The notes under the pieces are model-generated. The model saw nothing but the letters and a program-made list of their open reading frames with translations. It searched no databases and was not told the DNA's origin. Positions 50,369-64,000 of a DNA stretch of 64,000 bases are shown in pieces. A program made the translations under genes and the position numbers. Within the stretch, counting starts at the first letter, position 1; every line of letters begins with the position of its first letter. The stretch covers positions 72,924 to 136,923 of IMG/VR virus record IMGVR_UViG_3300044640_002221. The stretch is one strand, 5' to 3'. The stretch is from a virus.

Positions 50369-51139
50369 TTAGACGTTAGCTGCAAGTACAGATTGGTCTA
50401 CCTTTGGCGGAACTTCTGGAGGCGTACTTCCTGCTCTAACGCGAGTTTTTGGAGCCTCTGAAGGTGAAACTGCTTTAGGAGCAGGTGGAGCTTCTGGAAT
50501 ATCTCTTGTGGTTACACTAATAGGAGCCCCAGTTTCAACCTTCTTAGGTTGGGGCTTGCCGTTACGGAAGTAATCATTTAATTCCACTTTTCTACCCCTA
50601 ATACCATCCCCATGCCACTCCAAGTTTCTATAAGCCCAACCACTAAAGCTGAGCTGACCCTCCTTATTAATTTTTGGTAATAGCTGCAATCCAGCATCAC
50701 CATCTTGGGGCTCAAACCAAAGATTTGGGCAGTCTTTATAGTTTGGTTTAGAACCAGACTTAAGAATCTCGCCGGCTTCTCCAGTCCATTCTAGAAGTAC
50801 ATTTAGAGCAGCAACTACCTCTGGTTCTAAATCTTCTTCATGCAGAACTACATAACCGCCGATTTCCCATAATGAATTATCGCCAGCAGCTTTAGCCGCA
50901 GCGATATCTTTTGGTAAAGGTACAAGCTGCCAACCGTCTTCTGAAGAGCTAGTGCGACCTTGAATCTTTAACTGCAGGCTGAACCTGCCTGGAGTGTCTT
51001 GATAAACACCCCAAACGCGGGGTTTAACCAACTCTAACTCTTCGCTCCACATTGTGATGCGCTGACCAGCTTGTAGCTGCTCACAGAATAGAGCGGGTAG
51101 ATTTAGGTCTTCAGCTAACTTTAATAAATCTTGAGACAT
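50369..51139 (-). CDS. Hypothetical protein with Pro-rich tail
   Basis: 256-aa ORF, AAGGA SD. Confidence 0.75.
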   Translation of the reverse strand: MSQDLLKLAEDLNLPALFCEQLQAGQRITMWSEELELVKPRVWGVYQDTPGRFSLQLKIQGRTSSSEDGWQLVPLPKDIAAAKAAGDNSLWEIGGYVVLHEEDLEPEVVAALNVLLEWTGEAGEILKSGSKPNYKDCPNLWFEPQDGDAGLQLLPKINKEGQLSFSGWAYRNLEWHGDGIRGRKVELNDYFRNGKPQPKKVETGAPISVTTRDIPEAPPAPKAVSPSEAPKTRVRAGSTPPEVPPKVDQSVLAANV

Positions 51140-51689: not shown

Positions 51690-54600
51690 TTAGCAAACAG
51701 CTTGTTCTTTAAGCCAGTTGATAACATGAAGGTTGGTTCTATAAGAGTTAAACATCAACCTTCTATAGGTACTAGCTCGGTAGTTTCTTTGTTCTTTAGT
51801 CTCTGTGACTAAATCAACAGTATCGCAGCCAGTGTAGAAGTACAGGTCTTCTAGTTTTCTAACGCGGCTAGAGCCAACGTAGAAGGCATTGTTTTGGAAC
51901 ATAGGTCTCTTTGCACCATACTCCGTTCCGTTCAACACTACATCTACTGTTTGACCGTCATTAGGACGGACTCTCTTACGGGTGTAAGCGTGGGCAACTA
52001 CTTTATCCTCTGTCATACCTTGACAGCCGTGAAAGGTTATCGCCCATGCTAAGACAATAGGAATCTGGTTGAATCTTCCAACTGGGATTTGATTCTCATC
52101 TAATGGAGCATGGAGGTCTACTCTACCAATCTCAATGATGTTGCCATTACGAAGCTTGACATCAACTGAGTCATCATTAAGAGCTACAATAACTCCACGA
52201 CTACCTTTAGCTGCTAATGGTAGTTTATTAGAGTCGCTAGGGTCTTTAATCTCCTGCTTAACTCTAATTGGAGCCCCAACTACTAACTCCAAGTTTTCTT
52301 CTACAGGCTTAAAGTTCTCTATGAAAGATGCCCTAGTGTAGCTTCTGTCATTAACAGAGATATTAGCTGAGTAGACTTTACTCCTGTTACCTTTAGCTTT
52401 GAGTTTAGTTAGTTCTTGACGGTTCCATTCAATTAGTTCGTCATTTAGTGCAAACACATGAAGAGCATCTTCTGGCATTTCATCCAGGGAAGCTTTCAAC
52501 CGACCTTTAATCAAAGGACAGTTTTCTAGCTCTCTGTGTTTACCGTGTCCTTCACCAAGAGCTAGTAGGTTCAGCTCTTGGGCAAACTCAGAGCCTTCAG
52601 CCTGTCTCATCTGCTGCTTGAGGTTGATGAGTTTCATGTCTAGCTTGTCCATTAAGGAGGCTTTTATTACTTCCTCACCCTTGTGGTTGAAGACAGCTCT
52701 ATTCATAATCATCTCACCACCAACAGGCTCTAGTTGTTTGAAATCACCGACACAGAGCCATTGGATAGGAGTCTTGCGAGCCTTGTTTGCAGCAGCTTCA
52801 TCGCGTTGGTTAATTTCTAATCCTTCAGAGATTACATAACCAAGGCAGGTGTCTAGCATAGATACTTCATCTATCAGAAAGATGACACCTTTATACTTTC
52901 TGCCTTTCTGTACTTCAGAAAAGCGTTTCTTGGTTTTATCAGAGGTTACACCACCAACCATCTTCTGAGCTGCTGACCACTCTCTAGCTCCGTTATCAAA
53001 GCCTTTACCAACACCTGTAGCTCGGTTGATAGTACCTTGAGAGTCTTGCAGGTTCATGGAAGCTAAACCAGTTGTTGCTACAGGAACAATCCAGTAGCCC
53101 AACAGTTTAAGTATCTTAACTGCAACTGAAGAAAGGTGAGATTTACCCGTCCCGGCATTACCTGTTAGGACATAGTTACCTCCTAACAGGATTAAGCGGA
53201 GTGCTTGCTGTTGTTCGGGGTTTAGTCCTTTTACAAGGGCTGTAACCTCATTAGCAGTCCAAGTTTCCAGTTTTTCTATGTAAGGAGTTAACCAAGCTAA
53301 TGGATCTAACTTAACAACACTTCTGGCTCTTCCAGTAACTTTAGGAGCAGCGGGAGTTAGTAACCAGTAGCCTTTATAGCTGCAAGCAACCCACTCGGCT
53401 GAGTAGTTCTTACTCTCAACATAACTCTTGAGCAACTCATCAACGCCGCTGCATCCTCCGACAACAAACTTACTGCTTGCTGCGATAGCTTTATTTACTA
53501 AAGGAATGTAACGCTCGTTGAATACTTTTGCGGCATCAGCTTCTGTAATGCCACTGCTTTTGAAGACACCAGAGCCAGATACCATTACTACATCATTAGC
53601 AGTGTAGACACCTATGTTGGCTCTAGCACCCCAAGCTATACGATAGTTTTCTGTACTGCTTGCTACTCCAGGTTTAGCTGGGAAGCCGATGAATTGAGTG
53701 GCTACAGCAGCCATTGCATCATCTTTGATTTTGTTTCTTTCTGCACCAGGTACAGAGGGTAAACCATCAAGAGGGTGTTTAGCAACGAACTGTTCGTCAA
53801 CGGTAGTCGCACTCTCTGAGGACTTGTATTCCACAATTACAGCGTGAGGAATAACTTGTGCAAGAATATTCTGAACTTCTGTCCAAGTTGCTGTTTTAGA
53901 AGCTTCAGTTGGTCCCCCTGCTAAACCCGAACCTAGCCTGTGAGGAACATAAACAGTAAGATTCTGCTCCTCAGCAAATCTTCTTACTTCCTGCAAGCCT
54001 TTTGCTAAAGCATCAAAGTCAGTTTGTCTAGACCTTGTACTATAGTAATGCTGTCCCGCAACGTTGGCAACGTACAGTTTGTCTGCCACTTTGACAAACT
54101 GAACATCTCCCAACTTCCATTCTTTAGCTTTATACTCTTTGTCTACTAAAGGCCATTTCTGACCTATGGCTAAAGCTAGACCAGCGCCACTAACATTACA
54201 GCAGTTTACTTGTTGCACTATCACACCACAAGTAACATCTAAAATGTTGGTTAAGTTAGTTTGCGGCTTGGCTAAAGGTTCACTAGCAGGTGCAACGGAG
54301 TTTGCTTCAGGAGTTTCTACTGCTATGCCACCGCCATTACTATTAGGTCTTGGTCTTCTATTTATCACAGGGATGCCACCTTGTTCATCTTTCTGCTCAG
54401 TAAAGAGAGCTATAGATAAAGGTGCTTGCTTTTCTTCTTCTTCTACAACTGGAGGTACTTCAGGTAAAACTATTGATCTTCTACTTAAAGGTGTAGCAGG
54501 TGGCTTAGCCCGCTCTGGTTTCTTAAGGCTGTTATCCCAAGCAACTACAGTAGCCTCTTGAGCATCTACTTCATTTTGCTCTGCTTCTGTTAGTTCAGGA

Positions 54601-57600
54601 ACGGTAATTGGTTCTTCAACTACTGTTGGAGCAACATAAATGCTTGCTTCCCAAACTGCACGGCTGCCAGCTTTTTCTAAGTCACCTTTTACAACATCAA
54701 GATGACACTGTTTAGGACTGCACCAGCATTTAACTTCTACAAAGCCATATTCTTCAACCTTGTTCCATAGTTGAGCTATAGCAGAAAGAAAGTTAACTCT
54801 TGTAGGTTTCTTCCAAACTCTAGCTATATGGAAGTTATTATCTAAACCTCTCAAAACTGTCTGAGCAGCTCTTACTGGCTCAACACCTTGGTAAACTACA
54901 AGATTGTAGTAGTTACCATAAGCAGCCACAGATATAGCTCGGAGAGCTTCCTTGCGGTAGTCATGCTTGAAAGGATTACCTAACAGACTTTCTCTGTCTC
55001 CATCAACTCTTACCTCTTCTGGAGAGTCGTAAGCGTGCTTTTTATTCACAACGCTAACAAGACTCTGAATTAGAGAGTTTTGTTTTGGAGCTTCTTGCAC
55101 TATAGGCTCAGCTACTGCAGGCTCTACCACAACTGGTGTAACAGCCTCAGCGTTTACCTCTGCAACTAACCCTCTTACAAAGCAAAGAGCTTCTTCCCAC
55201 TTAGCTGCGGGTAGAGTTTCTTTAACTTCAACTAACTGTTTTAACACGCTGTGCGCCTCTTCTTTTGTTTCTTCTATTACAACTGATTCTATCTCAACAG
55301 GCTCTTCAAACACAGCAAAGTCAATAGGTTCAATAACTGCTAGAGCTGACTTAAAAGATACAGGAGCTTGCTGCGCTTCTTTCTTCTCTGCAATATCTAC
55401 AGGTAACTCAGCTTCTACTTCACGAGTTGCCACAACTCTTTGAAGAGTAACAAATCTACCTTTAACTAACCGAACATTAGTAAACTCTTCTGCATGAGCA
55501 ATAGATTCTGGTTGCTCTTCATCAATGTTCAAGAATTTAATCCATTCAATTTGGTTATGGAAAGTATAAACACCATATCTACGACCTTCTTCTTCCCACA
55601 CTTCTTCATCCGGTAAGAAGTAACGTTGCGTGCTGGCATCGTCATCCTCTTCTGTTACAAGAATGTCAGCCTCAACCCAGGTAACTGTTTCTTCTACAGT
55701 TTCTACAACTGGCTCAACATTAACTGTTTCTGCTTCTACTTCTACAATGCCTTTAGCAGCCAAAGCTTTGAAGTATTCTAATTGATGGGGTTGGAGTTTA
55801 GAAGGCATAACTTCTCCTGCTGCACGTCTGCCAGAACGTTCTTCAGCTTTTGCACCATATAACAGCCAATCACACTCTTCTATGACTTGATTGAGTTGAT
55901 AGCAGACTAATGACTCCTTAATCATGCTGGGGTTTTCTTTCAAGAATGTCCGAGCCATTTCCATAGCTACTTTGTGTCCTGTAGCTTTTGGATTCTTGTT
56001 ATCTGATAGCACGCCATTAAAGCCTGCAAACTTACCTCGTAGTAGCTCAAAGCTTACTAGAGCCACAGCTAACATCTGTTTGATGTTTTGTGGTACAGCC
56101 ATCTTGGTAGGTACACCATTGCTCAAGATGTGGTCACAGAACTCACCATGCTTCTCTAGGAAGAACAGTTGGTGAGCAGCGAGCATTAACTTTAAGAAGC
56201 CTTCAGATTTATCTCCAGCCATACCAAGAGCTACAATATCTTGGTTAAACTCTTTTAAGTTTGGTCTCGCTACTGTTCTTTCACCTTCTTTCAGACCTTT
56301 GAGGTACTTGCTATAGACAGTCCAGGCAGGGTTACTGAAACCACCTAGAATAATTTCGTACATAGCAGCCGTACCTGGTACTAAGTCAGCATTAGCAGCG
56401 TTGCTCCAATCCCAGCCAGTATTAGTTTTTGGGTCTTTATGGTCTATATCTATTCCTAGTTTTTGAGCAGCTAGAAGAATGTCCACAAAGTGTTCAGACC
56501 ACATAAAGATAGAGTGAGCAATACCTACAGCTTTAGTTTGTACCTCACGAGTCTTTTGGTTAAAGTCTATGTACTTATCTAAAGTCATAGTTACTTTACT
56601 GCTCTTAACAGATTTAGGCGTACCACTCAACGTCAAGGCTACTTTTTCCCAAGGTTTAATGTTGTAGTGATCTGCGGCGTACTGTTCGTTTAGGTTATCT
56701 TTATCTTCGTTTGGCTCGTCTTTTTCATTTGTAAAGACGTTAAACATTGGATAGCCTAACAGCTTACTAAGAAACTCAACATTCTCTTCAAAGCTGGTAG
56801 CTTCAAACTTTCCTTCTAGTTGAACAAAGTAATGTCCATCTCCGTCAAAGTCACCCAAATCCATTGCACAGCTAATAGGGCTTAGTCCTACAGAGTCAGC
56901 ATTAATTTGGTAGAAGTTAGCTAGGTTCTCCTCCTCTTTGATGATTCTCAACTTGAGGATTGGACCATCTGTCAATGGTGCGCGAGAGTTATGGTTAAAT
57001 ACTGTTACTTCACCAGTCTCTATCTTGTCAATCTTGAACCCAGAACGGGCGAGCTTCTGACAAACACTGTTAGGCGCAGAGGAATAAAGAACCCAGATTT
57101 CTCCGGTAGGAATGTTTGGTAAAGCAATACGTTTACCAGTGACGTTACCAGCTGCGCTGATTAGCTGTTTAGTCTTTTTGGAGTCGCATAGTTTGTCAAG
57201 AATACCGCTAACTCTCTTCTCTTCTAGAGTGGTGACAGTCACACCATTAAGGCAAGGAACTAAGATATCTCTGAAGAACTTCTGCGACATATTGTTACTA
57301 GAATCCTCAGTCTTAAGTGCCGCGGTCGCTAGTAGTGCTGGCAACCACAACTTTTTACCAGCTGCATCAAATGCCACATCTCTAAAGCAATGAGCAACCC
57401 TCTTAAACAAGTCTTGCTCATGGTGAGCTAGAGTTACATCAATATCACTAGCGGCTAATAACTCCTTCAAGTAGGCTATGTCAGCGGGTGCTAAAGACAA
57501 GGAGTCTATTTCCTTCTTAGGGTCTTTAAGAGAGATAAACTTAACTACTTTAGAACAACCAAAACTGTCACCAGATGCCATGCCTGCTATTACTAGGGAC

Positions 57601-60600
57601 ATGAACATACTTTCTTTACCAGCATCTAGGAGCTTCTTAGCTGCTTCAAACATTTCTGCTGCTGGATCTCCTGGCATCCTAGAGAATGAACGAACACTGG
57701 AAGCCATGTGGTTTGAGTCTGAGACAGCTTCTGCTACAGTGGAAGACTCGAACAACTCAACGCCATAAACAGGCGCTCCAGGAGCCCCGATGAAGCAGTA
57801 AGAGCGTTGGTAATACTCTACCAAGTCATCTTTACTGACGAATATGATGGCGTTCTGTTTAGGGTTATTAGCATAGTCAAGTGACTCAGCTATAATACCC
57901 ATTGTTTTGCCTTCAGCCTTCAAGCGGTGGTATAGAGCTAGTTCTTCTGCACCCCAGTTACTACTGCTCTTAACGTCAACCCAACCAAACTCTGCTTTTA
58001 CCTTTCTTGGGTAGAGTTCGGTCATGATTCTACCTTGATCGCCACATTGAGCTACGTGCATCCATATAGCACTACCGAAGGTTTCCTCAAAGTAGTTAAT
58101 CATTTCTTGGTACAGCCCAGCAACAACGCTGTAAGACTCAATAACCAAGTAAGGTAAGTTAGCTTTCTCACCAAGAGCAGCATGAATATCTTCTTTGAAC
58201 TCATGAAGCTTCTTAATTGCTTCTGCCTCTGGGTTGCTATAACGTAAGGTATTACCAATGACTTGCAGCCAAGAGTACAACATATCAGACTTGATAGTAT
58301 CTTGTGGTGCTATCAGTTTAATGTCCCCTAAACCTAAAGCTTGAAGGTCAGGGTTCATTGCGTTGTACAGAATCTCATGTTTAGCCTGACCCATCATAGC
58401 TTTGATGATGCCACGTAATTTAGGATTGCGGTGGGTTAGATAATAGTCGTACTCAACAGCCAGTTCTGTTGCTTTACCAACAGTTTGTACTTCAAACCAA
58501 CGAATTTCAGCTAAGTCGGCTTTATCATGCTTATTGAACTCTACAGAACCCCATACCCCTGTTTCTTTAGGAATCCAAGCTAGTTCTGTTCCAAAGAGGA
58601 TTACAGGCTTTTCAGTAAACTTAAGGGTGTGCACTCCCGTAATTTCATCAAAGCTGTATGTAGGTTCAGCGTAGTCACCCAAGCGATGTTCAATTATAGA
58701 TTGTCCCTTGAGAGTCACAGCATCCTTTAACTTCTCACCAGCAGTGTAATCAGCGAAGACTAATCTTTCAGTCTTCATGAAGTAACCAATTGGCTTTTGT
58801 TCTTCTGTACCTAAGAACAATGCCATACCTGGAGGCATAACAAAAGTAGGAGCCATACACTCTTGAACTAACCAGCCTTTCAACAACTTGGTTTGGTTAT
58901 AGTATTTGTACCCAGCTTCTACTTCACCTACTACATGGACTGCTTTAGCCATTGAGAGTGTGGCACGTTTAGCACCCTTAGATGCTTTCAGAGTCAAGGA
59001 GACAACGTAATCAGCGGCTACTTCGGCTTTTAGTCCAGTAGCTAATAGCATCCTAGCAAATAGGTTGGGAGCGCGCTCTTGTGCTAATGCTAGAGACACA
59101 TGGGTGATGCCAGCCAAGAATACTCCTTTGGCAAAGTGGAAGCCTAAAGACCTGTATTTAGGCATAGCTGCGAGCATTGCTGCTTGTTCTACTTCATCTT
59201 CAGAGTCCTTGAGAGTTTTTACTACTTGACCAGTTTTGGTCTTCAGTAGTAGTTTTAGCTCATCAGCAGTGACAGACCTTGGTTCTGTTTCGCCATTAGT
59301 CAACCACATCTTCTTGCTCTTACCCTTCTCAATTTCTCCACGCATTAAGAATGCAGTGCTGTGAGCCAGTCTACCTGTTTGTTCAGGAGTAAACTCAATA
59401 TTAGGGTTGAATGGTCTATGAATCAACACTTTCATGTTGTTTTGTAAACCGTGTAAGAAGCCGCCGTTTTGACCTAGAACTTCGGTCAACGTTAGAGGGA
59501 ACATATCATCCCCTTCTCTTAGGAGCTGAGGGAAGTTAGCAGCTAGACCATCACGAACATTAATCTTGTTATTGCCTAGCATTAACAAGAAGCCGCAGAA
59601 AGCTTGCATAAACTTACCAGTTGATGAGGCTGGTTTGACTCTAGTTACGTGAGGTGTTTTAACCTCTTGTAGTAGGTATTTGTCATCAACTAACACTTCT
59701 TTGCTGGAGATCTTGTGATAGCCACTGACTTCTATAGCTTGCTCAAATGAACGACCTTCTTGGTCATAAGCCCGACCGTCATTGCTGATTAAGATTGCGG
59801 TTGCACCACCAAAGTTGATGTTTAGCTCTTTCTCCTCGGTCATGTGGTAAGACAGAGTAGCGACACTTACTTCGTTATCTTTACTCCATCTAGCAGTTAG
59901 AACAGCAAGAACCTTTTCGACATCTTCAGGAGACCAAGAGTAGTATTGGACTGGGTTTCCATTAGTTCTTCCAAATATGTACTCTAAGGTAATCTTGGAA
60001 GCTTTTAAATCTGAACCACAGTCGTAATACTCTAGTTCTATTGCTTCTTCATCTACTTCTTTAGGAGCTCCCAAAGTATCAAAGGTTAAGTTAACTGCCT
60101 TGTACAAAGCTTCCAGCTCATTGTCTACGTTAGCGGCTACAATAGCTTTTTCTACTTCTGGGGTTTGACCTCTTCTTCTACGGGTAGAAGAAACTTGTTC
60201 AGTAGATGCCACTGGTTGTTCTACAGTCTTCTCAGCCTGAACTTTAGTAACTGGTTTAGTCCCGTTTGTTTCTTTAGTTATGGCTGCTTGAACTTTAAGA
60301 GCTTCTATACCTAATAGAGCGTAAGGACAGAAGTTCAAGATATTCTTACTACCAAGAATGGCATCTCTATCTTCTACTAGAAACACTTCAACCTTGTAGG
60401 GATAGATTCTCCACTGTATACCACCCTTATCCTTCCCTAAAGCTCTATCTTTTTTAAAGGAAGCAACAGTCACTAATGTTTGCTTTTTTCCATCTTTTAG
60501 TATTTCAGCAAGACCTCGTTCTCCTTTGTAGGTGAGAGTAGCTGTAGTTCTTTCAGGTTTTGCGTTACCTTCCCTATCTTTTACTTGACGGAAAGATTTG

Positions 60601-63600
60601 AGATCTACACTTTTACCTGTTTCTATAGCCTCTCTTATTAACTTTCTGCAGTTAACAACTGAGTCAGGTATGGTGTTATTCTTACCAAACCAACCAGCAT
60701 CAAACATATCAAGAATGATCTGTATGCCAGCGGTTGCTACAGCCTTTTCAGCCTTAAAGGTTCTTGAAGCGTACATAACTGGAGTAAACTGTGCCGTGCT
60801 GCCATTCACACAGTATTGAGCTACACAAAGATTGAAGGGTGAGGAGTCATAGGGTAGTTTGTTACCTGGTTCTGTACCACCTGACAACAAGTTATTGTTA
60901 TCTTTGGGATGTACGTCATCCACCCAATAGCTCACAAACTCTGAGTCTATGCAGGGAGAAGGCACGTTCATGGTGCATTTAGCAAACACTCCATCTTCCA
61001 TACGAATGTTAGAGCCAGCTATCACAATCTCATCTGGCTTAGCCTTTTCAGCATCAGACATACCTGTATGCTCAAAAGTAAATAAGCTTGTTAACCCAGG
61101 AACGGGGTAAAGCTCATTAAATGTAGTGCCAGGGTCTAGCATCTTAACTACTTCAGTAACACTAGACTGAGGAGTAGTGGAGATAGTTATCTCTTTGGCT
61201 GGCTTTGTAGCTTGTGTAGACTCAGTAGGGCGTTTACGAGTTTGTGGCACAGTTTGCTGCACAGTTAATAATTCCTCCTGTTTAACAATTGGTTTCTTAA
61301 CCATTCGCACGGTTAAGTTAATTCTGGTACCCTCTTCGATGTTGCCAGCGTAAGAGTGTATGCACTTGCGGTGCTTACCGTAGAACATGAACAAGTCACC
61401 TTTATTAAGAGTGAACTCGGTTACTTTGGCGTTTGGCTGCCAACTGTCTTTAATGTTGAACTTACCAGCAGCTCCTAGTGATAAAGACACAATAGGCGCG
61501 TCCACCTCTTCTGACTGATCAACGTGGTAGTTTAGAGCATTACCTGATTGGTAAACATTAACCAAGCAGCTCTCAGCCACAAACTCACCATCAAAGATAC
61601 CTTTAAAGGTGACATTGACTAGGTGTTCAACCATGTCTTTCAAGAAGGCTGGCATAGCTTTAATAGTTGTATCATCTGGTTGAGTAGTAAGGTACTCTCC
61701 TACTTTCTTGCTCTTGTCCCAAACCCAGTAGTAGTCTCCTAAACAGATGTAGTGATAACCATTGGTTTGGAATGAGGTTTTATTGGTTGCAGGGTTGTTC
61801 AGAAGGTCTACTACTTCACCCCACACTTGGTCATAAGCCTCGTTTATTAGATAGTTGGAGTAATGCTTTAACCCATCTTTGTCTACTAATGCTGTACATA
61901 CTACAGGTTTTTGAGTTGCTGGTTTTATTAACACTTCACTACAGTTGGTGCTACTGTTCGCAAAACCAAATTCTCTTAACAAACTGTCAGCTTCTTCTGA
62001 GAGAGAAGTGTCATAATAAAAACGCAACTCTCTACCTTCGTAATCTTTTAAAAAGAGAGATAACTTCAGGCGTAACTCCGTTTCTATTCCTAGCTCCTGC
62101 CATATCTTAGTGTCTTCAGCCTCACAGGGATAAGTGGTCTCAGAAGACTGAAACTTGTACACTCTCTCCTTACTAGTTTTGGACTCAAGGGGTTCACCAT
62201 CAATTTTGATGATCAGCACATCTTCTAGCTCTTGGACTAGCTCTCCTTTGTAATAATAGCTACAATCAAGAGCTTTCACTTCTAAGCTAATATCAGCTTT
62301 TACTGCTTGCACAGTAGAAGTTGTAGCTAAAGGTAAAAGTCCTCTTCTACTTTGCATGGAATCATCCTCTTTTCTCTCTTCTTTTTTCTTGCGTGGTTCA
62401 CCTAAAGGTTTTACAGACAAATTCTTGTCTAACCACAGCCAGTCAGCATCAGGATGTATTTCAAACTTTAAGGAAAGAAGGTACTCTACTACCCCTTTAA
62501 CAGTGCACTCTGCTTTATTAAACAGAACGTGCTTTCCTCTAGCCTTACCAGCTAGAACTATGTGAAGAGTGGTTTTGTTATTGTCTGTAACAAACAACTG
62601 CTGTGAGTTCTCATTAAAGTTCTCTAGTCTGGTTACACCATTAGAAGGTTTGTTTTCTACTTTGCTCTTCTCTTTTTTCTTGCTGGTAGGCGATTCAAAC
62701 TCTGGTACAACAGTATCTCCGGCTAACCATAGCAATTCAGAAGCATTCGGATTGACTTGAAAGCCAATGCTTAGTAGGTAGTCTGCAGCACCACGAATAG
62801 TGCAAGTTGGGATATGAAAACTTACTTTGTAAGTTCTTACTCCCTTTAAGTGGTTATGGATTGCTTGCCTGTTGTCTTTGTTAATAGACAGCAGCATACC
62901 TTCAATCCATTCAACCTTTTCAAGAGTTACAGGCATTACAGTTTCAGACTTCATAGACATCTCTAGGTCTGCTGTGCCTGTAGCCTCAGCAGTAGCTTTG
63001 TAGTCTGCTACTGTTTCCTCAGCTTGTTGAACATGAGACTCTGGCACAACCCCAGAGTAGAGGTTGACATCAATAGCTTCCCGCAGAGCTTCAAGCTGCT
63101 CCAAGAAAGTATCTACTATTTCTGGTATTTCCGCACTAGCAGAAACACCGGCTTTTTTCTCTTTTCTCTCTTCTTTTTTCTCGACTTTTGCTACCTCCTT
63201 CTCTAATCTTTCCATTAACTTCTCTGCGTGACGGAGTTTCCGCTCTGCTTTTGTTAGCTGTACTGGGCGTGCTGTAGGAGATACAGCTAGAGTTTCTAAC
63301 TGCTCCTCTAGCTGAGTTTTCTTCTTTGACAATTTAGCCAGCACAGGGCGTTGGTCAGGCAGCACCATTGTCTTACGAGCCTTCAACTGCGCTGGGCGAC
63401 GCATAGAAGCAGTGATTGGCTTCTCTATTTGTGTACGACGGTGTAAGCGTACAGCAGGAGCTGTCTTTAGCTGTCCTTGCCCATCTGATAAATGAGCATA
63501 TTTAACAACAGTCTCCACAGACTGCTTGGTTGCCATTACCACTGTTGGTATAGCAGGAACAAAGCGGGTTTGCTTCCGGCAGAGGGCTTGGAACTCAGGA

Positions 63601-63944
63601 GATTTAGCCCAGCCATTCTTAGCTTGGCGTGCACGGCGCACGTTAGCAGCTAGACGGTGTTGAGCCTTGCGGGAGGCTCTTGCAATTTTGTTTCTCATGT
63701 TACGTGAAGGAGCGACCTTCTTAACGCTATTAACTACAACGGACAAAGAAACTAACAACGCAGACAAATTAACATTAGCCATGAGATTGGATTCCTTAAA
63801 AGTGATAAACGATTTGACCAAAGCCTTAATGGAAGTCAGACATGAACCAACAACTGCGGCTGTACTCTTGTAGCTATAGCTGGGTTGGTTAGAGCTAACC
63901 CGTGCTATAGCAGAAGAAGAGTTGGACGGTTGTTGGTCAGCCAT
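51690..63944 (-). CDS. Giant (~4084 aa) multidomain protein: AlkB, two-barrel RNA polymerase, DUF4326, macro, SLOG-like, Pif1/RecD helicase
   Basis: Start MADQQ at 63944 with AGGAGG SD. AlkB LVNVY...YHVD...IVSLSLG...H...RINLTVR (~61300-61600). KLRGIIK (~58410), RAP and GDFDGD (56838-56852). GNPF...CWCSPKQCH (~54690-55060). Macro VQQVNC...GAGLALAI...LGSGLAGG (~53830-54250). Helicase GNAGTGKS, DEVSML, VGDFKQLEPV, AITFHGCQG (~51750-53230). Confidence 0.9.
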   Translation of the reverse strand: MADQQPSNSSSAIARVSSNQPSYSYKSTAAVVGSCLTSIKALVKSFITFKESNLMANVNLSALLVSLSVVVNSVKKVAPSRNMRNKIARASRKAQHRLAANVRRARQAKNGWAKSPEFQALCRKQTRFVPAIPTVVMATKQSVETVVKYAHLSDGQGQLKTAPAVRLHRRTQIEKPITASMRRPAQLKARKTMVLPDQRPVLAKLSKKKTQLEEQLETLAVSPTARPVQLTKAERKLRHAEKLMERLEKEVAKVEKKEERKEKKAGVSASAEIPEIVDTFLEQLEALREAIDVNLYSGVVPESHVQQAEETVADYKATAEATGTADLEMSMKSETVMPVTLEKVEWIEGMLLSINKDNRQAIHNHLKGVRTYKVSFHIPTCTIRGAADYLLSIGFQVNPNASELLWLAGDTVVPEFESPTSKKKEKSKVENKPSNGVTRLENFNENSQQLFVTDNNKTTLHIVLAGKARGKHVLFNKAECTVKGVVEYLLSLKFEIHPDADWLWLDKNLSVKPLGEPRKKKEERKEDDSMQSRRGLLPLATTSTVQAVKADISLEVKALDCSYYYKGELVQELEDVLIIKIDGEPLESKTSKERVYKFQSSETTYPCEAEDTKIWQELGIETELRLKLSLFLKDYEGRELRFYYDTSLSEEADSLLREFGFANSSTNCSEVLIKPATQKPVVCTALVDKDGLKHYSNYLINEAYDQVWGEVVDLLNNPATNKTSFQTNGYHYICLGDYYWVWDKSKKVGEYLTTQPDDTTIKAMPAFLKDMVEHLVNVTFKGIFDGEFVAESCLVNVYQSGNALNYHVDQSEEVDAPIVSLSLGAAGKFNIKDSWQPNAKVTEFTLNKGDLFMFYGKHRKCIHSYAGNIEEGTRINLTVRMVKKPIVKQEELLTVQQTVPQTRKRPTESTQATKPAKEITISTTPQSSVTEVVKMLDPGTTFNELYPVPGLTSLFTFEHTGMSDAEKAKPDEIVIAGSNIRMEDGVFAKCTMNVPSPCIDSEFVSYWVDDVHPKDNNNLLSGGTEPGNKLPYDSSPFNLCVAQYCVNGSTAQFTPVMYASRTFKAEKAVATAGIQIILDMFDAGWFGKNNTIPDSVVNCRKLIREAIETGKSVDLKSFRQVKDREGNAKPERTTATLTYKGERGLAEILKDGKKQTLVTVASFKKDRALGKDKGGIQWRIYPYKVEVFLVEDRDAILGSKNILNFCPYALLGIEALKVQAAITKETNGTKPVTKVQAEKTVEQPVASTEQVSSTRRRRGQTPEVEKAIVAANVDNELEALYKAVNLTFDTLGAPKEVDEEAIELEYYDCGSDLKASKITLEYIFGRTNGNPVQYYSWSPEDVEKVLAVLTARWSKDNEVSVATLSYHMTEEKELNINFGGATAILISNDGRAYDQEGRSFEQAIEVSGYHKISSKEVLVDDKYLLQEVKTPHVTRVKPASSTGKFMQAFCGFLLMLGNNKINVRDGLAANFPQLLREGDDMFPLTLTEVLGQNGGFLHGLQNNMKVLIHRPFNPNIEFTPEQTGRLAHSTAFLMRGEIEKGKSKKMWLTNGETEPRSVTADELKLLLKTKTGQVVKTLKDSEDEVEQAAMLAAMPKYRSLGFHFAKGVFLAGITHVSLALAQERAPNLFARMLLATGLKAEVAADYVVSLTLKASKGAKRATLSMAKAVHVVGEVEAGYKYYNQTKLLKGWLVQECMAPTFVMPPGMALFLGTEEQKPIGYFMKTERLVFADYTAGEKLKDAVTLKGQSIIEHRLGDYAEPTYSFDEITGVHTLKFTEKPVILFGTELAWIPKETGVWGSVEFNKHDKADLAEIRWFEVQTVGKATELAVEYDYYLTHRNPKLRGIIKAMMGQAKHEILYNAMNPDLQALGLGDIKLIAPQDTIKSDMLYSWLQVIGNTLRYSNPEAEAIKKLHEFKEDIHAALGEKANLPYLVIESYSVVAGLYQEMINYFEETFGSAIWMHVAQCGDQGRIMTELYPRKVKAEFGWVDVKSSSNWGAEELALYHRLKAEGKTMGIIAESLDYANNPKQNAIIFVSKDDLVEYYQRSYCFIGAPGAPVYGVELFESSTVAEAVSDSNHMASSVRSFSRMPGDPAAEMFEAAKKLLDAGKESMFMSLVIAGMASGDSFGCSKVVKFISLKDPKKEIDSLSLAPADIAYLKELLAASDIDVTLAHHEQDLFKRVAHCFRDVAFDAAGKKLWLPALLATAALKTEDSSNNMSQKFFRDILVPCLNGVTVTTLEEKRVSGILDKLCDSKKTKQLISAAGNVTGKRIALPNIPTGEIWVLYSSAPNSVCQKLARSGFKIDKIETGEVTVFNHNSRAPLTDGPILKLRIIKEEENLANFYQINADSVGLSPISCAMDLGDFDGDGHYFVQLEGKFEATSFEENVEFLSKLLGYPMFNVFTNEKDEPNEDKDNLNEQYAADHYNIKPWEKVALTLSGTPKSVKSSKVTMTLDKYIDFNQKTREVQTKAVGIAHSIFMWSEHFVDILLAAQKLGIDIDHKDPKTNTGWDWSNAANADLVPGTAAMYEIILGGFSNPAWTVYSKYLKGLKEGERTVARPNLKEFNQDIVALGMAGDKSEGFLKLMLAAHQLFFLEKHGEFCDHILSNGVPTKMAVPQNIKQMLAVALVSFELLRGKFAGFNGVLSDNKNPKATGHKVAMEMARTFLKENPSMIKESLVCYQLNQVIEECDWLLYGAKAEERSGRRAAGEVMPSKLQPHQLEYFKALAAKGIVEVEAETVNVEPVVETVEETVTWVEADILVTEEDDDASTQRYFLPDEEVWEEEGRRYGVYTFHNQIEWIKFLNIDEEQPESIAHAEEFTNVRLVKGRFVTLQRVVATREVEAELPVDIAEKKEAQQAPVSFKSALAVIEPIDFAVFEEPVEIESVVIEETKEEAHSVLKQLVEVKETLPAAKWEEALCFVRGLVAEVNAEAVTPVVVEPAVAEPIVQEAPKQNSLIQSLVSVVNKKHAYDSPEEVRVDGDRESLLGNPFKHDYRKEALRAISVAAYGNYYNLVVYQGVEPVRAAQTVLRGLDNNFHIARVWKKPTRVNFLSAIAQLWNKVEEYGFVEVKCWCSPKQCHLDVVKGDLEKAGSRAVWEASIYVAPTVVEEPITVPELTEAEQNEVDAQEATVVAWDNSLKKPERAKPPATPLSRRSIVLPEVPPVVEEEEKQAPLSIALFTEQKDEQGGIPVINRRPRPNSNGGGIAVETPEANSVAPASEPLAKPQTNLTNILDVTCGVIVQQVNCCNVSGAGLALAIGQKWPLVDKEYKAKEWKLGDVQFVKVADKLYVANVAGQHYYSTRSRQTDFDALAKGLQEVRRFAEEQNLTVYVPHRLGSGLAGGPTEASKTATWTEVQNILAQVIPHAVIVEYKSSESATTVDEQFVAKHPLDGLPSVPGAERNKIKDDAMAAVATQFIGFPAKPGVASSTENYRIAWGARANIGVYTANDVVMVSGSGVFKSSGITEADAAKVFNERYIPLVNKAIAASSKFVVGGCSGVDELLKSYVESKNYSAEWVACSYKGYWLLTPAAPKVTGRARSVVKLDPLAWLTPYIEKLETWTANEVTALVKGLNPEQQQALRLILLGGNYVLTGNAGTGKSHLSSVAVKILKLLGYWIVPVATTGLASMNLQDSQGTINRATGVGKGFDNGAREWSAAQKMVGGVTSDKTKKRFSEVQKGRKYKGVIFLIDEVSMLDTCLGYVISEGLEINQRDEAAANKARKTPIQWLCVGDFKQLEPVGGEMIMNRAVFNHKGEEVIKASLMDKLDMKLINLKQQMRQAEGSEFAQELNLLALGEGHGKHRELENCPLIKGRLKASLDEMPEDALHVFALNDELIEWNRQELTKLKAKGNRSKVYSANISVNDRSYTRASFIENFKPVEENLELVVGAPIRVKQEIKDPSDSNKLPLAAKGSRGVIVALNDDSVDVKLRNGNIIEIGRVDLHAPLDENQIPVGRFNQIPIVLAWAITFHGCQGMTEDKVVAHAYTRKRVRPNDGQTVDVVLNGTEYGAKRPMFQNNAFYVGSSRVRKLEDLYFYTGCDTVDLVTETKEQRNYRASTYRRLMFNSYRTNLHVINWLKEQAVC

Positions 63945-64000
63945 GTGGTACCTCCTACGGTGTATTGGCTGTTGGTCATAAAAAGTGACCCACAACGAAC

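Follow-up and report, generated by a model that had tools for sequence, protein, structure and literature searches.

A giant phage polypeptide joining a single-chain two-barrel RNA polymerase and a Pif1-like helicase to predicted adduct-removing domains

Why should a phage carry enzymes of the adduct-removing type on the same polypeptide as the polymerase that transcribes its genome? This question is raised by one gene of the IMG/VR virus record IMGVR_UViG_3300044640_002221, in which a stretch of 64,000 nucleotides (hereafter the window) was analysed; it is the final 64 kb (C1:72924-136923) of a 136,923-bp contig estimated to be 71% complete. A sequence-only reading of the window had proposed that AlkB, DUF4326, macro and SLOG-like domains are fused around an RNA polymerase (RNAP) in a polyvalent protein with template-repair and anti-ADP-ribosylation activities. 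We established the identities of the domains, SLOG apart, together with their intact catalytic motifs, their fusion in a single chain, and the recurrence and shuffling of this fusion among relatives. On balance, we think it probable that this giant protein clears adducts from phage DNA, counteracting DarT-type toxins or cleaning the template, a counter-defence role that we infer from the domains it carries.

One reading frame with an RNA polymerase at its centre

One uninterrupted frame on the minus strand (window 51690-63998) holds all the motifs named in the sequence-only reading. The ATG at 63944 was taken as the real start because an AGGAGG (Shine-Dalgarno) sequence lies 6 nucleotides 5' of it and because residue 1 of full-length homologues aligns to the Met at this position, giving a product of 4,084 amino acids with the N-terminus MADQQ. 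The open frame extends to the end of the contig, which stops 54 nucleotides upstream of the gene. Residues are numbered on P0001, a translation that starts at the end of the window; as the true protein begins at its residue 19, 18 is to be subtracted from each number. Misassembly or a pseudogene was rejected because the full-length frame is conserved across independent metagenome assemblies. The gene and its principal domains are as follows.

51690..63944, minus strand: polyvalent-protein gene (ATG at 63944, stop codon at 51690-51692)
61305..61865, minus strand: AlkB-type Fe(II)/2-oxoglutarate dioxygenase domain (residues 712-898; Pfam PF13532)
55839..60011, minus strand: conserved core of the single-chain two-barrel RNAP, as modelled (residues 1330-2720)
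56838-56852, minus strand: DFDGD motif of the RNAP (residues 2383-2387)
54687..55043, minus strand: DUF4326 (residues 2986-3104; Pfam PF14216)
53784..54248, minus strand: macro domain, SCO6735/BT1257 branch of the ALC1-like (TARG1/DarG) class (residues 3251-3405)
53349..53741, minus strand: conserved small alpha/beta (Rossmann-like) domain (residues 3420-3550)
51843..53228, minus strand: C-terminal Pif1/Dda-like SF1B helicase (residues 3591-4052)

The single frame and the domain matches bear out the proposal of one very large multidomain protein with AlkB, DUF4326 and macro domains fused around a transcribing enzyme. The interval to which the fusion had been assigned, 53400-61600, is too short at both ends: AlkB extends to 61865, so that the third of this domain nearest the N-terminus is lost, and neither the first 700 residues of the protein nor the fused helicase (51843-53228) is included.

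Sequence and profile searches of residues 900-2980 against Pfam and PDB returned nothing, and the RNAP identity of the core was revealed solely by structure prediction. A HMMER search of 1.84 billion representatives recovered 78 sequences related to the core; E was below 1e-30 for 24, and lengths of 1,400-4,500 amino acids were common. In a 30-sequence alignment, K1671/K1674/R1678, K1860/R1862/K1866, R2339-x-P2341 (within NSRAPL) and GDxDGDG at 2382-2388 were invariant; we take NSRAPL and GDFDGDG to resemble the beta' signature NRAPTLH...NADFDGD. The AlphaFold model of residues 1590-2700 had a predicted local distance difference test score (pLDDT) of 85.7 and a predicted template modelling score (pTM) of 0.84, and all of its top 50 Foldseek matches were beta/Rpb2 or beta' subunits of cellular, plastid, poxvirus and archaeal RNAPs, with a probability of ~1 for nearly all and a best E of 5.8e-4. 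With VIA, an aligner that does not depend on Foldseek, the barrel bearing DFDGD (model residues 695-817) matched double-psi beta-barrels at Z ~10, and further matches were QDE-1 (Z 9.5 over 397 residues), the virion RNAP P23-45 gp96 (Z 9.0 over 326), P74 gp62 (Z 8.4) and RDR2 (Z 8.1). DxDGD stands in a double-psi barrel after an NRAP-like strand, and the second barrel carries the invariant K1671/K1674/R1678. The invariant motifs, the AlphaFold model and the Foldseek and VIA matches together confirm the region, as modelled, as a single-chain two-barrel RNAP, in the place between AlkB and the C-terminal domains where a polymerase had been predicted. No further polymerase of the same family was found in the 137-kb contig or in a 197-kb relative, other RNAP types not having been searched for.

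The C-terminus is a helicase of the Pif1/Dda type. Pfam matches to PIF1 (33.8 bits against a cut-off of 25.9), AAA_30 (40.3 bits against 27) and AAA_19 were obtained, together with a match to PHROG 325 (Dda-like helicase) at 2e-32 and, with the family profile, to Pif1 structures down to 1e-15; the Walker motifs GTGKS and DE are present. This Pif1-like helicase is the constant partner of the RNAP, and the macro domain is the rarest accessory, a contrast that the sequence-only reading had missed.

N-terminal to the polymerase, the AlkB domain matched Pfam 2OG-FeII_Oxy_2 (PF13532) at 1e-23 (85 bits, cut-off 31.2; profile positions 4-194 of 194), NCBIfam alkb (TIGR00568) at 2.2e-15 and E. coli AlkB structures at 1e-4 in a PDB sequence search. 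The residues expected to bind Fe(II) and 2-oxoglutarate, H825-x-D827, H881 and R892-x5-R898, are intact here and kept in all six aligned homologues with an AlkB domain, in agreement with the signature first reported at this position. The domain is a predicted oxidative demethylase. AlkB-family enzymes prefer single-stranded substrates and act on RNA as well as single-stranded DNA.

C-terminal to the polymerase, PF14216 matched DUF4326 at 1.1e-6 (29.6 bits, cut-off 25), and all nine aligned homologues with the domain retain GNPF and CWCxPxxCH, so that the earlier assignment holds. No solved relative of DUF4326 was found among PDB sequences. The domain has been predicted to process ribose-linked phosphates, in the part of PMC9503650 devoted to it, and here it would likewise be a predicted ADP-ribose phosphate-processing enzyme.

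The macro domain was also recovered, though not through Pfam Macro: it matched BT1257 (2fg1/2afc, 2e-14) and SCO6735 (5e3b, 1.3e-10) over ~100 residues in a PDB sequence search, and PHROG 335 at 1.5e-21. Matches to the DarG antitoxins were weaker, at 0.059 for the M. tuberculosis DarG macro domain (5m3i) and at 1.6e-5 for NCBIfam antitoxin_DarG (NF048014), the latter over profile positions 7-121 of 338 with 24 bits against a cut-off of 250. Judged by its sequence, the domain is DarG-like in fold and class and is not a DarG. Aligned to 5e3b by HMMER (chain numbering +20), the domain has N3265, Q3316 and G3358 at the places of Asn27, Gln85 and Gly128 of SCO6735, and Tyr at the place of Gly87. 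Mutation of Asn27, Gln85 and Gly128 cripples SCO6735, an enzyme that hydrolyses the ADP-ribosyl-thymidine formed in DNA by DarT and can rescue cells from this toxin; its subclass has been characterised on DNA and protein (PMC9411070). From this kinship with SCO6735 and DarG, the domain is predicted to be of the ADP-ribosyl-DNA glycohydrolase type. The anti-DarT idea gains weight from the SCO6735 kinship, from N3265, Q3316 and G3358, and from a NADAR domain in the sister protein P0003, and as a function it stays a prediction.

The remaining C-terminal domain had been read as SLOG-like. A conserved small alpha/beta domain does exist: the AlphaFold2 model of residues 3400-3565 had a pLDDT of 82 and a beta-alpha-beta-alpha-beta-alpha-beta-beta layout, and 12 of 13 close homologues contain the domain, as do two unrelated proteins. 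Its identity as SLOG is not supported: profile searches, named in the sequence-only reading as a refuting test, failed to recover it. The segment gave no Pfam match at E up to 5, and no PDB match either as a single sequence or as a family profile; YAcAr (PF10686), DprA (PF02481) and YpsA (PF06908) gave no candidate anywhere in the genome up to E 10, LOG and other SLOG profiles not having been tried. Foldseek (PDB and BFVD) and VIA gave generic Rossmann, class-I methyltransferase and HAD matches with Z <=5.6, and no SLOG chain was among the top 50 structural matches, by aligners that are blind to circular permutation. None of Pfam, the three SLOG profiles, PDB, Foldseek and VIA supports the SLOG assignment. 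Weak leads to SLOG-type clusters (0.84-0.87) came from the protein-language-model Atlas. DUF4326, Macro and NADAR often adjoin SLOG, and SLOG often adjoins SF1 helicases, in the neighbourhoods that PMC9503650 describes for these domains; by analogy with these published neighbourhoods, SLOG survives as a lead. The domain also occurs outside the polymerase giants, in the metagenomic proteins P0017 (405 amino acids) and P0018 (1,524 amino acids; DUF7831), whose conserved core is QFIGF...SST..Y..AWG..ANTG.YT..D..MVSGSG; the GGCSGVD motif stressed in the sequence-only reading is absent from both of these distant copies.

Exchange of domains among relatives

About 90 relatives were surveyed, comprising 14 close proteins and 76 distant representatives. 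The 14 close proteins come from independent metagenomes, are 3,500-4,130 amino acids long and share 48-82% identity in the core. The N-terminus, a domain called X1 that lies between AlkB and the polymerase, the polymerase, the Rossmann-like domain and the helicase are constant in this family, and the other domains come and go. Seven of the 14 carry AlkB. Of 13 close homologues, 10 have DUF4326 and two lack it, and in P0003 its slot, directly before the macro domain, is taken by NADAR (Pfam 5.6e-16). Among the 76 distant representatives, the helicase is fused in 30, NADAR occurs in five, AlkB in three and a macro domain in one, beside NADAR. A Pfam scan of 13 distant giants gave the following domains.

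Helicase: 13 of 13
AlkB: 3 of 13
NADAR: 3 of 13
DUF4326: 1 of 13
Amidoligase: 1 of 13
RNase H: 1 of 13

Apart from one amidoligase and one RNase H, all accessories are enzymes of nucleic-acid adducts or of ADP-ribose. The repertoire is narrow, and predicted adduct-removing or ADP-ribose enzymes appear to have been recruited repeatedly at different positions. AlkB stands N-terminal to the polymerase in the phage of the window and C-terminal to it in three distant relatives, in two of them beside NADAR. Because AlkB recurs on the opposite side of the polymerase, twice adjoining NADAR, its distribution points to repeated recruitment and not to one chance fusion. The survey of homologues for domain shuffling that had been suggested for this fusion thus revealed strong shuffling, with varying orders of AlkB, NADAR, DUF4326 and macro. 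Like other polyvalent proteins, this one is large, has several unrelated catalytic domains and varies in architecture among its relatives.

Exchange was most distinctly observable for DUF4326. Between P0011 and P0013, identity is 97-100% in the N-terminus, AlkB, X1, polymerase and helicase, and 43% in DUF4326. The DUF4326 of P0013 in turn is 86% identical to that of the window, whereas the polymerases of the two are only 50% identical. DUF4326 is an exchangeable cassette with two allelic types, ~43% identical, one of which is common, at 84-86% identity, to lineages with polymerases only 50% identical. Such exchange is typical of arms-race modules, and this pattern of identities suggests conflict.

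The family is known from metagenomes alone. A tblastn search with the polymerase core found no match, and no member of the family, in 50,697 GenBank phage records, and blastn of 5 kb of the gene found none among GenBank phages. In a locus search of IMG/VR nothing was found with the single protein and one locus (L002) with the family alignment, which found none in JGI metagenomes.

Three further parts of the polypeptide lie outside the recognised enzymes.

61884..63944, minus strand: N-terminal region with basic and coiled segments and repeated small modules (residues 19-705; 36-61% identity in the close family)
60264..61151, minus strand: conserved domain X1, between AlkB and the polymerase (residues 950-1245)
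55044..55763, minus strand: acidic Glu/Val/Pro-rich linker (residues 2746-2985; composition scan)

The N-terminal region had no significant Pfam, PHROG or NCBIfam match. A module with a motif of the type '...YLLS.GF...P...WL' at its end occurs there in two or three copies (window 62380-62860 and ~61960-62100; P0001 residues ~380-540 and 640-680) and is also seen in the homologue consensus. X1 was found in every close homologue reaching that far, and gave no Pfam or PHROG family and no usable Atlas match. The composition scan placed Glu/Pro/Val/Thr-rich linkers between the domains, and the acidic linker varies in length, with big insertions in homologues. Structure models were made for the Rossmann-like domain and the polymerase; DUF4326, the macro domain, X1 and the N-terminus were judged from sequence alone.

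A proposed template-cleaning role and its rivals

The arrangement suggests how such a protein could work. The constant core is the single-chain two-barrel RNAP followed by the Pif1-like 5'-3' helicase, with exchangeable predicted erasers carried in the surrounding linkers; in the phage of the window these are AlkB, DUF4326, macro and, counted with them, the Rossmann-like domain. The helicase would unwind phage DNA and expose single strand for the polymerase to transcribe, and the tethered erasers would strip from this strand the base adducts that would otherwise block the polymerase. The adducts in question would be ADP-ribose attached by DarT-type defence toxins and methyl lesions of the 1-methyladenine and 3-methylcytosine type. 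In this way the phage could transcribe its genome, and later replicate it, even in a host with such defences. Synthesis of the protein would probably be late, with entry into the cell together with the DNA, as for other virion RNA polymerases; this is the least certain step. The substrates and the virion delivery are, like the role itself, what we infer from the domain set. Published work on defence by DNA modification agrees with such a scheme: DarT toxins ADP-ribosylate thymidine or guanine in single-stranded DNA, and macro enzymes of the SCO6735 class and NADAR reverse these marks (PMC9411070, PMC11543638). NADAR, a DarG1-type eraser, reverses guanine ADP-ribosylation, and phage NADARs neutralise DarTG1 (PMC11543638, PMC11257639); AdfN of T4, used by T4-like phages in this way, is a proven anti-DarTG1 factor (PMC11257639). 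Transcription of ADP-ribosylated DNA is impossible, according to the introduction of PMC11257639.

The genomic context bears on delivery. The related record G001 (196,877 bp, 94% complete) carries genes for tail sheath, major head protein, prohead protease and portal on one strand, followed on the opposite strand by a giant open reading frame (ORF) of ~3,900 amino acids, a 'virion structural protein' (a weak PHROG match), an Ant-like protein, the polymerase giant and small genes. The block with the polymerase giant runs divergently from the portal, protease and major head genes. Such a placement is compatible with a head-packaged protein and is no proof of it.

Several neighbours may be recorded here. 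The second giant ORF of G001 (L004:9395-19999 into L002:3-1157, contig ~41425-53187) adjoins the portal gene and shares its strand with the polymerase giant, of which it lies ~9 kb upstream; neither Pfam nor PHROG gave a match, and its product may be packaged too or be of a tape-measure-like kind. Directly upstream of the polymerase giant, at L002:8766-9872, is an Ant/KilAC-type anti-repressor-like protein (PHROG 130, 4e-32). In the window, an ORF of 256 amino acids lies directly downstream of the giant gene (50369-51139, minus strand) and is syntenic in G001 (L002 22025-22654, 31% identity); neither copy had a PHROG match, and ten window ORFs downstream of the giant gene matched no PHROG family. 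At the opposite end of the contig, reading of the translation revealed a candidate protein resembling a formylglycine-generating-enzyme (sulfatase-modifying) domain. Over the whole contig the HIP1 octamer GCGATCGC occurs 26 times against ~4 expected; the host of the phage is probably cyanobacterial, which this excess fits.

A number of observations weigh against the template-cleaning role. Pfam Macro (PF01661) stayed below its cut-off on the macro domain (13.2 bits against 22, E 0.088), a profile that fails to capture the SCO6735/BT1257 branch. The catalytic Lys80 of DarG is Gln here, as it is in SCO6735, and the C-terminal half of DarG, which binds DarT, is missing. The macro domain occurs in two close lineages only, that of the window and that of P0003, and in one distant one, and is therefore non-essential to the machine. 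We know of no host defence that produces AlkB-type lesions. No recognisable head or tail genes were found in the 137-kb contig; because this contig ends 54 nucleotides upstream of the gene and is without structural genes, virion association is argued from the gene order of one relative and from analogy. The published prediction for DUF4326, in the part of PMC9503650 that treats it, concerns soluble ADP-ribose phosphates and not DNA.

That last prediction belongs to a different explanation, in which the ADP-ribose module (DUF4326, macro and Rossmann-like domains here, NADAR in relatives) would destroy or sense soluble NAD-derived immune signals or toxins, such as the cyclic ADP-ribose isomers of TIR/Thoeris-type systems or ADP-ribose phosphates, acting early and fused to the polymerase for co-delivery only. 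Such a role has been predicted for combinations of Macro, NADAR, SLOG and DUF4326 in phages, some of them fused to SF1 helicases, in the relevant parts of PMC9503650 and PMC7824862; the ribose-linked phosphates assigned to DUF4326 (in the same part of PMC9503650) would suit it, and the Rossmann-like domain, which Atlas linked weakly to SLOG-type clusters, might sense nucleotides. However, the closest characterised relatives of the macro domain act best on DNA-linked ADP-ribose (PMC9411070), and the domain matches the DarG antitoxin model. Moreover, AlkB, second only to DUF4326 in frequency among the co-occurring accessories, plays no part in ADP-ribose signalling, the partner enzymes RNAP and Pif1 helicase are all DNA-bound, and the SLOG identity was not confirmed. 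We regard this explanation as unlikely. Tethering to the polymerase would also be explained if the erasers protected nascent phage RNA, and not the template, from methyl or ADP-ribose adducts of RNA-targeting toxins. The domains are physically coupled to an enzyme that produces RNA, AlkB-family enzymes work on RNA besides single-stranded DNA, and macro and NADAR enzymes reversing RNA ADP-ribosylation are among those reported in PMC11833690 and PMC13036486. The SCO6735 subclass, by contrast, has been characterised on DNA and protein (PMC9411070), and the constant helicase partner is of a DNA helicase type; protection of RNA appears to us quite improbable.

A protein made after infection that never enters the virion could also serve inside the cell as a factor of transcription, replication or repair, with AlkB and macro as housekeeping repair, for example of environmental alkylation. 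Sporadic phage AlkB has been read as repair or as resetting of methyl marks, in the section of PMC7824862 that touches on it. Against this, the size and architecture resemble those of the injected polymerases N4 vRNAP, crAss gp66 and P23-45 gp96; a single polymerase of the family is present in each of the two genomes, one of which is 94% complete, within a search confined to this family of RNAP; the cassette-swap pattern suggests conflict; and the gene adjoins head genes in G001. We give a housekeeping role the smallest chance, and consider it very unlikely. Returning to template cleaning, a more specific and decidedly tentative version, which we think doubtful, is that the machine is a delivered single polypeptide coupling unwinding, promoter-specific transcription and adduct reversal, a form of 'transcription-coupled direct-repair' that evolved against the marking of the entering genome with ADP-ribose or alkyl groups, and that its AlkB answers an unrecognised host defence that alkylates single-stranded DNA.

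Should the predicted activities be real, the enzymes that first meet the phage DNA inside the host would be physically linked to the removal of its adducts, and the protein would provide a testable model for the survival of early transcription under DNA-modifying immunity. A defence based on alkylation, as yet unrecognised, is hinted at by the repeated recruitment of AlkB to this machine. The ~90 divergent members supply natural domain-swap variants for experiments, and the cassette site between polymerase and helicase may be a source of new anti-defence domains.

Comparison with known systems

Taken singly, the ingredients of this protein have all been described: polyvalent proteins, injected two-barrel RNAPs, phage anti-DarT glycohydrolases, and architectures of DUF4326, Macro, NADAR and helicase. 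The combination appears to be undescribed before, as a full-text search of the literature found no description of an RNAP-Pif1 giant bearing AlkB, NADAR and macro, nor of this polymerase family in cyanophages. To our knowledge, the proteins with which phages counter DarT-type ADP-ribosylation of DNA are small and free-standing, and injected RNA polymerases have no repair activities.

The polyvalent proteins surveyed by Iyer et al. 2017 (PMC5512222), which include N4-like virion RNAPs with effector domains, are likewise very large single polypeptides with a central polymerase, several catalytic domains, low-complexity linkers and a content that varies between relatives. Their polymerase is of the T7-like N4 type, whereas the one described here is two-barrel, and their accessories are host-attacking ADP-ribosyltransferases, peptidases, lysozymes and methylases, in contrast to the predicted erasers AlkB, macro, NADAR and DUF4326. 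AlkB is not mentioned in that survey, and packaging of the present protein in the virion is predicted. The polymerase shares with P23-45 gp96 (a tape-measure fusion; PDB 8h2n/8h2m) and with gp66 of the crAss-like phage phi14:2 the two double-psi barrels in one chain, the DxDGD metal site and a position inside a giant protein. PDB sequence and profile searches detected no sequence similarity to them, and the RNAP is fused to a Pif1-like helicase and predicted adduct-removing enzymes, not to a tape measure as in gp96.

With SCO6735/BT1257 and DarG (PMC9411070), the macro domain has in common the GQH motif, the basic 'mobile loop' and the counterparts of Asn27, Gln85 and Gly128. It lies inside a phage protein of 4,084 amino acids, whereas they are free bacterial enzymes or toxin-linked antitoxins. 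T4 AdfN, a NADAR (PMC11257639), and the DarG2-like protein of a chimallivirus (PMC13309987) are also phage-borne domains of the ADP-ribosyl-DNA glycohydrolase type, as presented in the relevant parts of these sources; there they are small, free-standing and of demonstrated activity, whereas here predicted domains are fused to a transcription machine, with NADAR and macro side by side in the sister protein P0003. The closest likeness in domain order is to the DUF4326-Macro-SLOG-NADAR and SLOG-SF1 helicase architectures of DNA viruses, as set out in the sections of PMC9503650 and PMC7824862 that deal with them: the neighbours are the same, in the order DUF4326 or NADAR, macro, Rossmannoid and SF1 helicase. 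For the present Rossmannoid the searches gave no support for SLOG, and the module is joined to an RNAP and AlkB, a union that those sections do not describe.

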